DNA from: a virus
Strand: one strand, 5' to 3'
Virus genome (UHGV): UHGV-0220445
DNA: 39,794 nucleotides
Shown: positions 6,405 to 9,525 of the stretch, in pieces
How positions within the stretch are numbered: the first letter of the stretch is position 1
Layout of the letters: each line of letters begins with the position of its first letter
The notes under the pieces: generated by a model
What the model saw: only the letters and a program-made list of their open reading frames with translations
What the model was told of the DNA's origin: nothing
Database searches by the model: none
Translations under genes and position numbers: made by a program

Positions 6405-6887
6405 ATGAATTTTATCGCTACTGTAAACGCACCCGCACATGGCAATATCGCTGTAACGTTCTCTGACATTGAAAAACGAGTACTTGGTGCCTGGCGTCAC
6501 AATGAGACGGTAGAACTGTCAGAACAAGAAAAATGCATTATTGCACGCGACATCATTGGCAATCGTCGTTACTCGCGGGTATTTGAGAAAGCGTATGTGG
6601 TAAATTCTGGGTTCGGAACGTTCGTCTTTCCGGTGCGCTCCGGGCGATTCTGCCAGTCCAAGCTGATTGAGTTCGCTACGCAGATTTCTGTCTGGATTAA
6701 AACTCAATCGTCGTTCAAATTTTCCGACGATGAAGCAGTATCGCAGGGGATGCGGATCGCCAACAATGCGATTAAATGCAAAAACATTACGTATACCGCT
6801 GGCGTTGACACATGGAAACTGTTTTGCGCTAACTTTATGCTGAATGTATACGCAAGCAACCGCATCCACATCCTTGATGGCGTGTAA
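6405..6887 (+). CDS. Hypothetical early protein (160 aa)
   Basis: ORF track; SD aagga upstream. Confidence 0.55.
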   Translation: MNFIATVNAPAHGNIAVTFSDIEKRVLGAWRHNETVELSEQEKCIIARDIIGNRRYSRVFEKAYVVNSGFGTFVFPVRSGRFCQSKLIEFATQISVWIKTQSSFKFSDDEAVSQGMRIANNAIKCKNITYTAGVDTWKLFCANFMLNVYASNRIHILDGV

Positions 6888-6890
6888 CTG

Positions 6891-6920
6891 AGAAGAGGGC
6901 CAGAAACGGCCCTTTCTCTA
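6891..6920 (+). terminator. Putative terminator (agggcc-agaaac-ggccct + TTTCTCT)
   Basis: Stem-loop immediately after stop at 6887. Confidence 0.45.
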
Positions 6921-6936
6921 TAGCCACCAGCTGCCG

Positions 6937-7014
6937 CAGGGAAATTTTCAGAAACGGCGAGGAACGTATTCATGAGCCGACGGGAAACGGCCAGGATTTT
7001 TTCGGGAAACGGCG
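6937..7014 (+). repeat. Second iteron-like array (cagggaaa, cagaaacggcg, cgggaaacggcc, cgggaaacggcg)
   Basis: Same repeat family as 3281-3411. Confidence 0.55.
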
Positions 7015-7436
7015 GGGGTCGCCTTTATGTAGAAAACTGAGCGGGAGAAACCCGGAATCGCGCCAGAAATTGCGTAGCGGCGCTGGGGTATCGCTGGTGG
7101 GGGGGTCAGCCCCTGGGCCATCCAGATAGCTTTCGCTATGTGATTATGTGAATCCGTGGGTAAATCACTGTAAGCGCGTACACGTTGCCCAACGTGGCAA
7201 TCATACGCGAGCGGATACGGAACAAAACAAAATGCCGATCTGCGCCGACAAATAAACGCGGATCACATAGCAAGACTAAAAGCCAATGATTAGCCATACG
7301 TTATAGCGCAATATAACGCATTTTGAGCGCGTTAATGTGTTAAGTAATGGGTATGTACTGGTAAGGATATAAAAGCGCGTCTATGGCGTTATTTTGGCGC
7401 TTATTTTTATGTTGTTGGAGTGAGTCAAAGACAATA

Positions 7437-7466
7437 AAAAAACGCGCCAATGATGGCGCGTTTTGG
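7437..7466. terminator. Bidirectional terminator-like hairpin (A-run, cgcgcca-atga-tggcgcg, T-run)
   Basis: Symmetric A/T tracts around a GC stem, between convergent gene blocks. Confidence 0.55.
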
Positions 7467-7486
7467 TGGGAGTATTGGAAACGAAA

Positions 7487-7507
7487 AAGCGCCCATAGTG
7501 GGCGCTT
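7487..7507 (-). terminator. Hairpin agcgccca-tag-tgggcgct, partial copy of the 37-bp leader repeat
   Basis: Immediately past the stop of 7512..7742; T-rich on minus strand. Confidence 0.5.
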
Positions 7508-7511
7508 GATT

Positions 7512-7742
7512 TTATTTGTGCAAACTGATTTTAAATCCCATTTCTACAAACGCTTTTAGCATTAAAAATATATCAGCGTCATTCACGTCTGCTTTTTTTC
7601 GCTCCTGGTCGCTCAATAAGTCAATTTTGCGCGTCGTTTCATCGATAAACTCGACTGAGCGCCCAGCGTAACCAGCGATCCCAGCGATGCGATTAACAAA
7701 ATATTCATTGCGCACGTTAACGCCAGCGATAAGAATAAACAT
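7512..7742 (-). CDS. Small hypothetical protein (76 aa), paralog A
   Basis: ORF track; N-terminus shares MxIxIxGVN...IAG.AGYA with 7785..8012. Confidence 0.55.
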   Translation of the reverse strand: MFILIAGVNVRNEYFVNRIAGIAGYAGRSVEFIDETTRKIDLLSDQERKKADVNDADIFLMLKAFVEMGFKISLHK

Positions 7743-7776
7743 GATTAAGCTCCTTAAAAGCGCCCATAGTGGGCGC
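7740..7776 (-). repeat. 37-bp perfect direct repeat (start codon + SD + hairpin), copy 1
   Basis: catgattaagctccttaaaagcgcccatagtgggcgc identical at 7740-7776 and 8010-8046. Confidence 0.85.
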
Positions 7777-7784
7777 TATTGTTT

Positions 7785-8012
7785 TTATTTTTCTAAGTGA
7801 ATATTAAAGCCAGCGTTTAAAAATTCTTGAAGCATTAAAGTTACATCAGCTTCATGGATTCCTGCGCGCGCTCTATGTTCTACGTCATTGATGTTTATTT
7901 TAAACGTTGTTTCGTCAACCACTTCAGAACTTAGAGCATACCCAGCTAAACCAGCAATATCATAAACAAGAGTATGATTGTTGATATTTACGCCAGAGAT
8001 GAAAATAACCAT
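7785..8012 (-). CDS. Small hypothetical protein (75 aa), paralog B
   Basis: ORF track; paralogous to 7512..7742. Confidence 0.55.
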   Translation of the reverse strand: MVIFISGVNINNHTLVYDIAGLAGYALSSEVVDETTFKININDVEHRARAGIHEADVTLMLQEFLNAGFNIHLEK

Positions 8013-8046
8013 GATTAAGCTCCTTAAAAGCGCCCATAGTGGGCGC
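8010..8046 (-). repeat. 37-bp perfect direct repeat, copy 2
   Basis: Identical to 7740-7776. Confidence 0.85.
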
Positions 8047-8059
8047 CAGATTCCATTAA

Positions 8060-8710
8060 TTACGCTTTGAAAGCATCAGCCAGATAGTTATAGAAATCAT
8101 TTTTAATAAAGCGATATTGCTGAGTACCAGCTTTCGCGCTCCCAGCTCCTTTGACTTTTTCAACAAGTCCGAGACGTTCGCAAAGATTGATCAACTGGTT
8201 GGCTTGAGTATAGCCAGCGTCCAATTTAATTTCACACGCTTTTTTAGCTTCATTCATTAAATCGAAAACAGCGCCATTAGTGAACGTGTCGATCTCGTCG
8301 TTAATCATATCGATTAAAGCGAATACACGAGATCCGGACATATCAGCGACGGAATAAACACACTTTCCAGCTTTAATGGATTTAACCAGATAAACCAGTT
8401 TTTCCAGAGAATAACTGTTAGTCATTGCATCACGGAAAAAAACTTCTGGCGCTTGTTTGCTTGCTTTGATCGCATAGTAGAAAACAGAGCATAATTTTTC
8501 GTCTTCTACAGCGTTTACAACGTTGTTGATGAAGTAAGCAAGTTTAGTGGTAGCAGCTTGCATATTTGCTTTATCTGCTTTGGTGTGCGTACCATTTTTA
8601 TAATGTTCGTTATATGTTTGAGTTGCCAGATCTGCTTTTTCGCGCAGTTCATCGGATACAATGGAAGCAGCTTCAATGATGGATTTTTTAGAAATGATAA
8701 TGTTAGTCAT
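8060..8710 (-). CDS. Hypothetical protein (216 aa)
   Basis: ORF track; no family recognised. Confidence 0.5.
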   Translation of the reverse strand: MTNIIISKKSIIEAASIVSDELREKADLATQTYNEHYKNGTHTKADKANMQAATTKLAYFINNVVNAVEDEKLCSVFYYAIKASKQAPEVFFRDAMTNSYSLEKLVYLVKSIKAGKCVYSVADMSGSRVFALIDMINDEIDTFTNGAVFDLMNEAKKACEIKLDAGYTQANQLINLCERLGLVEKVKGAGSAKAGTQQYRFIKNDFYNYLADAFKA

Positions 8711-8966
8711 GATAATATCCTTATGAAAGTTTAAAATTTAACTCAAGAAAGAAAGTGTTTTGCACTCGTTCCTGATGCGTTCAATTATCGACACGCGAAA
8801 AAAGATTGCAAGTGTTTTTTTTAATTTTTTGCAGGGACGAAAGTCCTAGAAATAAAAGCGAGATCGTCGAAGGTGTTCCCTAAATAAATAATAAATTCCG
8901 GCTTTTGACCTTATATATTTATACGGGGGAGAATTGAAAGGGTATTAAATGAATGGCATGTAAAAT

Positions 8967-8990
8967 AATAACCGGACTTAGCCGGTTATT
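8967..8990 (-). terminator. Putative terminator hairpin (aataaccgg-acttag-ccggttatt)
   Basis: 9-bp stem just past the stop of 9004..9525. Confidence 0.4.
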
Positions 8991-9003
8991 ACCCTTATAG
9001 AAA

Positions 9004-9525
9004 TTAAAACGGAAGGATTCGTTCAACCCAATCGAAGAAAACAAGTATTTTTCTGCCGTCTTCTAACTTAAGAGTGACCTGGCAAGCATCAACGCCTCTT
9101 GATACCCCTTCTATTTCACGACCGTCTGCCATGTAGACCCTTATAGATTGGTCGTTTTGATAAGCCTTGCGACATATCGCAAAAAAGTCACGACGTGATG
9201 GCTGATTAACCATCTGTTCATTGTTCAGTGTTAGTCGACCTGTGAATGAAGTGTCAACCTCTTCTATGCCTGACTCAATTGTGCTAATGCGCTCAAGAGG
9301 GAGCCTTACACGATTTGTGTTGCTAAACGGATCTGGTGTGAGGTTCAGCTTATTTCTTGCGCTCAACAGCCCGTAGACATACATGCAAAACACTTGGCCG
9401 TCTTCGAGAGTGACTCTTACAGGAAATTTTGCACTCCGCCAGAAGAGCAAGGTGCGCTCAGCATGTTCGTAGTCTCGCGGCCAGACTTCAGCCGGTATGC
9501 CGTAGGTGATGTCCAATGTTTTCAT
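9004..9525 (-). CDS. Hypothetical protein (173 aa)
   Basis: ORF track; start overlaps the stop of the upstream gene. Confidence 0.5.
   Translation of the reverse strand: MKTLDITYGIPAEVWPRDYEHAERTLLFWRSAKFPVRVTLEDGQVFCMYVYGLLSARNKLNLTPDPFSNTNRVRLPLERISTIESGIEEVDTSFTGRLTLNNEQMVNQPSRRDFFAICRKAYQNDQSIRVYMADGREIEGVSRGVDACQVTLKLEDGRKILVFFDWVERILPF

Follow-up and report, generated by a model that had tools for sequence, protein, structure and literature searches.

Stem-loop/SD/ATG motifs of T4-like phages, known as PeSLs (promoter-early stem-loops), act as terminators or attenuators and as recombination linkers (Arbiol et al. 2010, PMC2839356; Comeau et al. 2014, PMC4122927). We describe here a small locus of the virus genome UHGV-0220445, of which one stretch of 39,794 nucleotides (hereafter the window) was analysed as a whole, and for which PeSL-mediated modular shuffling is the closest analogue. 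In both cases, a conserved short intergenic motif contains a terminator/attenuator stem-loop, behind which come the SD and ATG that start the next small ORFan; copies of this motif lie where variable accessory genes begin and end, and indels or replacements between close relatives map to it, with crossovers in its SD-proximal part and a single motif left behind at "empty" sites. However, the PeSL motif comes with a strong sigma-70 early promoter, whereas the motif of the window has none and its cassettes would depend on read-through, so that it is not a PeSL in the strict sense. PeSL cassettes also give rise to excised mini-circles through recombination between their flanking motifs. The two also differ in scale and setting, with ca. 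50 motifs of loose consensus per genome in T4-like myoviruses compared to no more than three copies of one fixed 17-mer stem in a single slot of a temperate siphovirus-type phage-plasmid.

Intercistronic stem-loops and leaky terminators are known to grade expression within operons, e.g., at the REP-stabilised malE-malF junction. There, as in the window, a GC-rich hairpin lies between cistrons of one transcript, and the expected effect of this arrangement is that the upstream cistron is stabilised or over-represented while distal expression is reduced. Unlike REP/BIME elements, the 17-mer of the window does not form a dispersed family and is confined to the slot. Classical phage morons, in the concept of Hendrix and Juhala, have their own promoter and lack a conserved flanking linker. 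Like the genes described below, they are small and non-essential, sit between conserved genes, bring their own downstream terminator hairpin and vary in presence among close relatives (the concept is also discussed in PMC2839356), but the modules studied here have no promoter and all share an identical 3' hairpin.

Anatomy of the locus

The region is matched by 12 phage records and 752 PLSDB plasmids, among them SSU5, Cyrano/pLF82 and PhiR41_1, and by sequence the source replicon of the window is a phage-plasmid of the SSU5/pHCM2/pLF82 type. The locus itself appears to be a small slot for accessory genes, polymorphic among relatives, with which one transcription unit closes; in the window, this unit runs from a candidate promoter through p216, gene B and gene A, each followed by a hairpin, to a second terminator (term2):

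8784..8811, minus strand: candidate sigma-70 promoter of the p216-B-A unit, TTGCAA-16 nt-GATAAT (weak, 9/12 matches in a consensus scan)
8060..8710, minus strand: p216, the anchor gene, 216 aa, phrog_1513, a conserved hypothetical gene of SSU5-like phage-plasmids
8030..8046, minus strand: hairpin copy 1, putative 3' stem-loop/leaky terminator of p216, 13 nt past the p216 stop and followed by T4
8010..8029, minus strand: translation initiation region of B, TTTT-AAGGAG-CTTAATC-ATG, which together with hairpin copy 1 forms the first 37-mer (8010-8046)
7785..8012, minus strand: gene B, 75 aa, phrog_1585, paralog of A, intact ORF
7760..7776, minus strand: hairpin copy 2, which closes cassette B at its 3' end, with T4 after it and, before it, the B-specific spacer AAACAATA that is also found behind B in X-B and B'-only relatives
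7740..7759, minus strand: translation initiation region of A, TTTT-AAGGAG-CTTAATC-ATG, which together with hairpin copy 2 forms the second 37-mer (7740-7776)
7512..7742, minus strand: gene A, 76 aa, phrog_1585, intact ORF
7487..7507, minus strand: hairpin copy 3, terminal, with a 9-bp stem followed by TTTTTCGTTTCC, putative main intrinsic terminator (hit of the terminator scan on both strands)
7439..7464, minus strand: term2, a second, unrelated terminator hairpin (AAAACGCGCCATCATTGGCGCGTTTT and a T-run) that would back up the array terminator

The candidate promoter is placed, from its context, in a 293-nt gap past the upstream gene's own, different terminator hairpin. A consensus scan of the minus strand found no promoter-like site between 7512 and 8060, where there is also no room for an internal promoter of A or B; with only 20 nt between hairpin and ATG, B and A would therefore have to be transcribed by read-through. 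Both of these ORFs had already been proposed by an earlier, sequence-only reading of this DNA and are indeed present and intact. For p216, the structural model predicts long N-terminal helices and a winged-helix-like C-terminal domain. Neither p216 nor its neighbours gave a recombinase match in Pfam, NCBIfam, PHROGs or the PDB, and a PDB sequence search with the p216 profile returned nothing significant.

The 17-nt hairpin GCGCCCACTATGGGCGC occurs in three minus-strand copies (at 7489, 7760 and 8030) compared to 0.00 expected from 100 shuffles. Stems of the window copies comprise 8 to 9 bp with six G-C pairs and enclose a 3-nt loop at -13.6 to -14.5 kcal/mol (for copy 1, 8 bp and about -13.6 kcal/mol), and the distance from stop codon to hairpin is 6 to 16 nt for p216, B, A and also X, an alternative cassette gene of relatives. 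The hairpin thus has the GC-rich stem-loop (ca. 5-12 bp with a short loop) and the location at the 3' end of a cistron that mark intrinsic, or Rho-independent, terminators, and the U-rich tract is present at the terminal copy (TTTTTCGTTTCC) and in part at the internal copies (T4 in the window). The T-score rises from 3.13 at the internal copies to 4.22 at the terminal one, and term2 reaches 5.44. The terminal copy precedes term2 at a convergent gene junction, and the tandem terminator region that they form folds with z = -7.9. The identical 37-mer (CATGATTAAGCTCCTTAAAAGCGCCCATAGTGGGCGC) described in the sequence-only reading is exact at both sites, 7740-7776 and 8010-8046, with identity ending at either border. 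What had been called a partial third copy at 7487-7507 does lack the SD and ATG, but its hairpin is complete and followed by a T-run.

Apart from term2, no further GCGCC..GGCGC hairpin besides the three copies exists in the 39.8-kb window, and an Rfam search of positions 6500-9200 at E <= 1 gave only sub-threshold chance matches that overlap the terminators. Across 596 Gb of genomes, pairs of the 17-mer at cassette-like spacing are limited to three Enterobacterales contigs (two of Kluyvera, one of Yersinia) and one Bacillota-labelled MAG, and the remaining 17-mer total of 87 stretches is near a hand-computed chance estimate of ca. 70 (2 x 596e9 / 4^17). The hairpin is private to this slot. A dispersed repeat of the REP/BIME or MITE kind was rejected because all three copies lie in the slot and the frequency outside SSU5-like elements is about that of chance, and an RNase III site was discarded because a stem of 8 to 9 bp is too short for one.

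Variation of the slot among relatives

Among IMG/VR loci that reach the second terminator, counted as contigs and not as independent events, the slot is empty in 10, holds X only in 25, A only in 12, B' only in 4, X-A or X-B in 13, and B-A in 2 besides the window. The six slot architectures have identical boundaries, with term2 as the downstream limit of the variable part in every relative, and four of them (A, X-A, X-B and B-A) coexist within a p216 clade of at least 97% identity. Arrays reach a ceiling of two cassettes and three hairpins. At empty slots, the hairpin lies 14 to 16 nt past the stop codon of p216, and T6 and term2 come immediately after it, so that it exists without any downstream gene. 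In occupied slots, each cassette comes with a hairpin copy and a stop-to-hairpin spacer of its own: TAAAAACAATA-hairpin closes B whether the slot is of the B-A, X-B or B'-only kind, while A ends in TAAAATCRA-hairpin and X in TAAGCAATA-hairpin.

The length of the T-run differs with what comes next: no more than four consecutive Ts follow 76 of the 82 hairpins with a cassette behind them, and five to seven Ts follow 89 of the 94 others. The stem is conserved, with an apparent invariance that is inflated by the gathering of loci through exact matches to the 17-mer, and the loop varies freely and even flips (ACTAT in 144 cases, ATAGT in 20, eight other loops in 12). More distant lineages have other hairpins at the same position (e.g., GCGCCAGAAATGGCGC or CGCGCTCCATAGTGGGCGCG) and T-runs are still present, which argues that structure matters more than the specific loop sequence. 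Tandem gene-less arrays of 44-47-nt hairpins are also seen in distant lineages.

These data bear on the proposal, made in the sequence-only reading, that every small gene has a 5' leader made up of hairpin, SD and ATG, which controls translation or protects the mRNA 5' end and was kept identical by selection or gene conversion after a tandem duplication. We consider this unlikely. It is known that 5' stem-loops can stabilise E. coli mRNAs, and the hairpin does sit just 4 nt before a strong SD (AAGGAG) and, in most cassettes, 17 to 20 nt before the ATG; moreover, AAGGAGCTTAATCATG is conserved between A and B despite only 47% protein identity, and gene-conversion-like chimeras exist. However, the same hairpin is found with no gene behind it in the 10 empty-slot loci, before the unrelated X and, as last copy of an array, before a T6 run, and at X-A and X-B junctions the hairpin is lost while T8, the SD and intact A or B genes are kept. 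The SD also lies outside the stable hairpin stem in centroid folds and in most predicted leader structures; a single 71-nt minimum-energy fold pairs it partly and weakly, and the centroid of that fold does not. Translational occlusion is therefore not indicated. The "RNA-stability control" that had been suggested may be right but would act on the upstream cistron, and a role of the hairpin in RNA 3'-end formation, attenuation or stability is plausible. The hairpin makes better sense as the closing element of the gene before it than as a leader of the one that follows.

Origin of the B-A array

The two cassettes had been interpreted as a duplicated gene-plus-leader unit. A repeated gene-plus-flank unit is indeed there, and the B and A cassettes align across all 300 nt, but the coding parts match only patchily at the DNA level and the low protein identity speaks against a recent duplication. 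Since A and B are old paralogs that occur singly or together with the unrelated X in relatives, the array is better explained by the stacking of two pre-existing modules. When one 270-bp unit is taken out of the window, the arrangement of Cyrano results, with 8 mismatches in ca. 300 nt before a difference in T-run length.

The view that the leader is kept identical stands only in part. In pEHP91H1-1, as in the window, both leaders have the same sequence, but they differ in four other B-A arrays, in three of them by one base and in pNT1F34-108k by more. Recombination or conversion nevertheless does act on the leader and the 5' coding region: in four of six B-A arrays the first leader fuses an X-type start (TTTAAAGGAGCTT) to a B-type end (AATCATGG), and the chimeric proteins P0035, P0038 and P0049 begin with ca. 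12 B-type residues before they continue as A-type. Together with the hairpin-free X-A and X-B junctions, these directly observed chimeras point to homologous recombination at a hairpin/SD "linker". Stretches of 17-37 bp are short for RecA-dependent exchange, so that a phage recombinase or replication slippage would have to be assumed.

Direct repeats of 37 nt that lie 270 nt apart could in principle reflect a collapsed or expanded repeat and thus a false tandem copy in the assembly. The probability of such an artefact is practically negligible, given that the units differ at many coding positions and encode proteins of such low identity, and that the B-A array recurs in 6 of the 752 related PLSDB plasmids with the full-length B-to-A junction in all six. 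These are complete and independent plasmids (sources include chicken, pig, sheep and E. marmotae), and two IMG/VR contigs carry the same junction, which settles the earlier concern about a misassembled duplication. One plasmid match (H78) that looked like a "three-piece" array was resolved as an ordinary B-A array.

The cassette genes

A and B had been described as sharing an N-terminal pattern with a divergent remainder, whereas they in fact align end to end (47% identity, 66% positives, E = 3e-22) and each match the whole length of phrog_1585. With dN/dS values of 0.19 and 0.18 (0.18 for B), they are supported as paralogs under purifying selection. B-type genes are present in 123 PLSDB plasmids, including 62 Yersinia records, and gene A contains a 9-nt (IAG)n repeat. 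The structural model of A shows a predicted beta-alpha-beta-beta-alpha-beta order and may be ACT/ferredoxin-like. ACT domains are defined by such a fold over ca. 70-80 aa and by the binding of a ligand, an amino acid, at a dimer interface. A PDB sequence search with A/B profiles gave no significant match, and a BFVD fold search of viral structures with the A model gave none at E <= 0.001. For A, B, X and p216 alike, searches of Pfam, NCBIfam and PADLOC gave no match that reached the threshold.

X is unrelated to A and B and also occupies the slot in relatives; the cassette genes belong to the families phrog_1585 and phrog_6145. Matches in PHROGs are to families of "unknown function" only, with the exception of X, for which we rejected the label "MIT family metal ion transporter" as unfit for a 67-aa soluble-looking protein. 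Phages often carry genes for host interaction or anti-defence at such positions, which makes A, B and X reasonable choices for functional screening.

Proposed mechanism and alternatives

Building on the directly observed anatomy and population polymorphism, we think that the locus is probably a cassette slot bounded by terminator hairpins, with leaky internal terminators and linker-mediated exchange. Each module, i.e., p216 and every promoterless small gene after it, closes with GCGCCCA-NNN-TGGGCGC and a T-run, and this hairpin most likely serves the preceding gene as an intrinsic terminator or attenuator and as a stem-loop that protects its 3' end. The T-run contrast was seen directly, whereas terminator activity, read-through, polarity and the recombination mechanism are here deduced from sequence. 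With its long U-tract intact, the last copy should be an efficient terminator; at internal copies the SD of the next cassette cuts the U-tract to one to four Us, from which we infer leaky termination with partial read-through into B and then A and, as a consequence of this series, stepwise lower expression of distal cassettes. All the same, a 4-U tract behind a strong stem can cause substantial termination.

The hairpin with its T-run (ca. 21 nt), or 37 nt with the shared SD/ATG, would at the same time be the linker at which homologous recombination or copy-choice adds, deletes and swaps cassettes between related plasmids. The B-A array would then consist of two old paralogous modules stacked by exchange rather than of a newly duplicated unit, and the 37-mer would be nearly identical because it is a conserved functional boundary and crossover zone. 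This linker model covers exchange and not the first acquisition of the same 3' hairpin by the unrelated X and A/B.

An invariant stem with a free central spacer would also fit a perfectly palindromic duplex site (GCGCCCA-N3-TGGGCGC) for a dimeric protein such as the adjoining p216 with its predicted winged-helix domain, which would make the array operator-, centromere- or recombination-site-like. We give this possibility little credence: the palindrome is found at gene 3' ends, terminal copies are followed by a conserved T5-7 that a DNA site would not need, distant lineages swap in different hairpins while fold and T-run are kept, and the neighbouring term2 hairpin behaves alike. The promoter region of p216 has no half-site, and the window as a whole shows no enrichment of half-sites apart from the three hairpins (8 found vs 4.9 expected). 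An autoregulatory operator for p216 was rejected on the same ground, with zero half-sites upstream of the gene. That the palindrome is both terminator and recognition site, bound as duplex by the p216 winged helix or as RNA by ferredoxin/RRM-like A/B, strikes us as a long shot. If true, the locus would be a protein-assisted cassette-capture or self-regulating phage-plasmid module, i.e., a minimal integrase-free analogue of integrons, and the gene-less 44-47-nt hairpin arrays of distant lineages would be arrays of binding sites.

The attC sites of integrons are imperfect inverted repeats of roughly 57-141 nt with R and L boxes and a GTTRRRY core, and integron arrays lie next to a tyrosine-recombinase integrase (IntI) and attI. 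Integron arrays resemble the slot in their tandem promoterless ORFs, each followed by an inverted repeat and read from one upstream promoter, and in a cassette content that differs between otherwise near-identical backbones. Site-specific capture of an integron-like kind, with the hairpin in the role of attC and a dedicated recombinase that acts on its folded single strand, is nonetheless very improbable, as no integrase-like gene is adjacent and the repeat is a much shorter, perfect 17-nt hairpin without attC architecture or GTTRRRY core. Furthermore, arrays stop at two cassettes or three hairpins, and the junctions fit homologous better than site-specific exchange and are explained by crossovers in shared T-run/SD sequence, even where they are hairpin-free.

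For the flipped loops, a precedent exists in the inversion of spacers within inverted repeats by replication template switching between the repeat arms (PMC8604942, PMC8794818). A matching signature is the occurrence of the hairpin loop in both orientations (ACTAT/ATAGT) on an unchanged stem, and term2 loops are likewise flipped (TTGT/ACAA, ATGA/TCAT, TTGA/TCAA) with stems unchanged. Here, the flips are a population polymorphism of phage-plasmid terminators that may arise by the same template-switch mechanism.

Biological significance

Overall, the locus looks like ordinary though unusually tidy phage mosaicism; a special 5' regulatory leader is not favoured, and current understanding is not overturned. 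Phage-plasmids of the SSU5/pHCM2/pMT1 type occur widely in E. coli, Klebsiella, Salmonella and Yersinia pestis, and their cargo includes accessory genes and resistance genes. For these elements, the slot would be a clean, small example of accessory-gene swapping at a defined "safe" site, where the repeated terminator/SD linker would keep every insertion transcriptionally tidy. It would also widen the PeSL idea, which was described for lytic phages of the T4-like kind, to cover a temperate phage-plasmid and a motif that lacks a promoter, and may offer a simple test system for read-through-graded expression, cassette exchange through short homology and the flipping of hairpin loops.

A polymorphic gene slot downstream of p216

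Downstream of the anchor gene p216 (phrog_1513), the window carries two paralogous small genes, B and A, interleaved with three copies of a hairpin-forming 17-mer (GCGCCCA-NNN-TGGGCGC) and closed by a second, different terminator hairpin (term2):

8060-8710, minus: p216, 216-aa ORF, stop TAA
8046-8030, minus: hairpin copy 1, GCGCCCACTATGGGCGC, 13 nt past the p216 stop, followed by TTTT, AAGGAG, CTTAATC and the ATG of B
8012-7785, minus: gene B, 75-aa ORF, stop TAA, followed by spacer AAACAATA
7776-7760, minus: hairpin copy 2 (17-mer), after AAACAATA, followed by TTTTAAGGAGCTTAATCATG, as after copy 1, and then A
7742-7512, minus: gene A, 76-aa ORF, stop TAA, followed by AATCAA
7505-7489, minus: hairpin copy 3 (17-mer), after AATCAA, followed by TTTTTCGTTTCC
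7464-7439 (also given as 7444-7459), minus: term2 hairpin with long T-run, ca. 25 nt beyond copy 3

The 37-mer described in the sequence-only reading (17-mer, T-run, SD, and ATG) is indeed exact at 7740 and 8010, its match ending sharply on either side, and the 17-mer occurs three times in the window versus zero expected. What had been called a partial third copy lacks SD and ATG, but its hairpin is complete. At every occurrence among relatives, the spacer between stop codon and hairpin is specific to the cassette (AAACAATA for B, AATCRA for A, and GCAATA for the unrelated alternative gene X); each hairpin therefore goes with the gene before it as a 3' element, copy 1 being that of p216, rather than forming the leader of the next gene as originally proposed. 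Beyond term2, ca. 550 nt with few ORFs (6888-7438) separate convergent gene sets; they contain GCGC-rich motifs and, on one strand or the other, several more terminator-like hairpins (7011-7023+, 7377-7401+, 7250-7233-). This stretch has no Rfam match, and a 40-aa ORF is annotated in its SSU5 counterpart.

The region matches the SSU5-like phage-plasmids SSU5, Cyrano/pLF82, and PhiR41_1 as well as 752 PLSDB plasmids from Klebsiella, Escherichia, Enterobacter, Yersinia, Salmonella, and Citrobacter. Scanning IMG/VR with the 17-mer gave 104 stretches, and 107 loci were examined including three annotated phage regions; 93 of these have a p216 homolog, the remainder being single matches in unrelated contexts. 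Loci were oriented on p216 and read as far as the second terminator.

Slot architectures among the loci compared
Empty slot (p216, hairpin, T6, term2): 10 loci
X only (67-aa unrelated gene, SSU5 type): 25 loci
A only (Cyrano type): 12 loci
B' only: 4 loci
X-A or X-B: 13 loci
B-A: 2 loci and the window

No locus has more than three hairpin copies. Four architectures occur side by side within a p216 clade of at least 97% identity, so the cassettes turn over quickly compared with the divergence of the backbone. Among PLSDB plasmids, X is found in 517 and B-type genes in 123, of which 62 are Yersinia records. A B'-type cassette (ca. 85% DNA identity to B, flanking hairpins 307 nt apart; Y. pestis plasmid matches H104 and H105, locus L161) occurs in the 62 Yersinia records, some of them large Y. 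pestis plasmids of ca. 96 to 101 kb; this Yersinia plasmid lineage thus shares the slot. Species-representative genomes totalling 596 Gb contain the 17-mer 87 times versus ca. 70 by chance (a hand estimate, 2 x 596e9 / 4^17); cassette-spaced pairs are confined to two contigs of Kluyvera, one of Y. pestis, and a MAG labelled Bacillota.

The hairpin as a putative terminator or attenuator

Its predicted fold and context suggest that the 17-mer hairpin is a terminator or attenuator. The stem has 8 to 9 bp with six G-C pairs and a 3-nt loop (-13.6 to -14.5 kcal/mol in predicted folds); a terminator scan calls copy 3 and term2, which folded together give z = -7.9. Among relatives, 5 to 7 consecutive T follow 89 of 94 hairpins without a downstream cassette, and at most four follow 76 of 82 hairpins with one, the SD of the following gene starting at that point; hairpins that depart from this are tandem or truncated cases that were mis-scored. 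In the window, T-scores of the d'Aubenton-Carafa type, a relative measure only, rise from 3.13 (internal copies) through 4.22 (terminal copy) to 5.44 (term2). A different terminator hairpin (AACCGGCTAAGTCCGGTT with a T-rich tail; 8955-9004, minus) closes the 173-aa gene that precedes the p216 unit and whose counterparts in relatives are annotated as transcriptional regulators, so the 17-mer is not the generic terminator of this genome.

On the minus strand, our scan of 7512-8060 turned up nothing promoter-like, and only 20 nt separate stem and ATG; transcription of B and A would therefore have to come from upstream read-through, probably from a candidate promoter (TTGCAA-16-GATAAT, 8811-8784) placed after the upstream gene's own, different terminator. 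In centroid folds of the leader the SD falls outside the stable stem, so translational occlusion by the hairpin is not indicated.

Across 176 hairpin copies the stem is constant, an invariance overstated by ascertaining loci through the exact 17-mer, and the loop reads ACTAT in 144 copies and is flipped to the reverse complement, ATAGT, in 20, with eight other variants making up the remaining 12; non-ascertained copies within these loci vary mainly in the loop as well. Flipped loops occur at first or last copies in several architectures, and the loops of the unrelated term2 also flip on unchanged stems (TTGT/ACAA, ATGA/TCAT, TTGA/TCAA). The sites concerned are 7489-7505, 7760-7776, 8030-8046, and 7444-7459 in the window, and the loci include L001, L007, L016, L023, L041, L048, L064, L087, L091, and L098, among others. 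At the population level this is a signature of spacer inversion between inverted repeats, probably by replication template switching, and it matches the footprint described for that process (PMC8604942, PMC8794818).

Distant lineages (p216 48% to 53% identical) carry other hairpins at the homologous position with the T-run kept, and we infer that structure rather than sequence is conserved. A minority reading takes the palindrome for a protein-binding site; against it stand this substitution of other hairpins, the conserved T-runs, and the absence of half-sites from the p216 promoter region. Lineages with divergent p216 (48% to 62% identity) show two or three hairpins with T-runs in tandem at 44- to 47-nt spacing without a gene between (L026 8081-8141, L060 1498-1602, L032 11796-11859, L071, L080, L104), which may be either stacked terminators or leftovers of deleted cassettes.

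Genes carried in the slot

Genes A and B are real: recovered ortholog ORFs are intact, with a median dN/dS of 0.19 across 22 distinct alleles of A and of 0.18 across 7 alleles of B. The two had been thought to share only an N-terminus, but they are homologous end to end (47% identity, E=3e-22), each covers phrog_1585 entirely, and the 300-nt cassettes align over their full extent. Homologs are confined to SSU5-like elements of Enterobacterales. Within gene A lies a 9-nt tandem repeat, ATCGCTGGG ATCGCTGGT TACGCTGGG (7662-7690, minus), encoding (I/Y)AG three times; homologs of A, 73, 76, or 79 aa long, differ in their number of complete IAG units, a pattern suggestive of length change through slippage. 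X (L002 2807-3010, SSU5_119; phrog_6145) is a charged protein of 67 aa labelled "MIT family metal ion transporter CorA" in SSU5 and PHROGs; this looks like a propagated annotation error because Pfam gives only a weak DUF6899 match (E=0.015).

Probable recombination at the linker

The B-to-A junction is found at full length in six independent complete plasmids and two IMG/VR contigs (L030, L081), so the array is no misassembly. Its identical leaders hold for the window and pEHP91H1-1 and are not a feature of the array type, since the first leader in four of six B-A arrays (L110, L112, L030, L081) is TTTAAAGGAGCTTAATCATGG, the start of an X-type leader fused to the end of a B-type leader at their common AAGGAGCTT, as would be expected had X been deleted from an X-B parent; the second leader of L112 carries TATT. 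X-A and X-B junctions retain T8 and SD without a hairpin, three proteins (P0035, P0038, P0049) are B-type over their first 12 residues and A-type thereafter, and the window minus one 270-bp unit has the Cyrano arrangement. Together, these patterns fit short-homology exchange or copy-choice within the hairpin/T-run/SD zone.

Relation to known systems

By analogy, the nearest described system is PeSL of T4-like phages, conserved stem-loops (terminator/attenuator) with SD and ATG at the 3' end that are repeated around ORFans and have been demonstrated to bring about insertions, deletions, and mini-circles (PMC2839356, PMC4122927). Like PeSL, the slot element has a stem-loop/SD/ATG linker and shows the indel pattern, but it lacks the promoter that defines PeSL and is restricted to one slot and one fixed 17-mer. 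Its cassettes resemble morons, though promoterless, and their likeness to integron cassettes is superficial given a slot without integrase or attC architecture. One paper on SSU5-group phage-plasmids, consulted in a non-exhaustive literature search, makes no mention of terminators, hairpins, or hotspots at this slot. Overall, the observation behind the sequence-only reading is confirmed and its interpretation holds in part; judged from comparative sequence data, the slot is a tidy case of a phage-plasmid shuffling gene modules linked by putative terminators.
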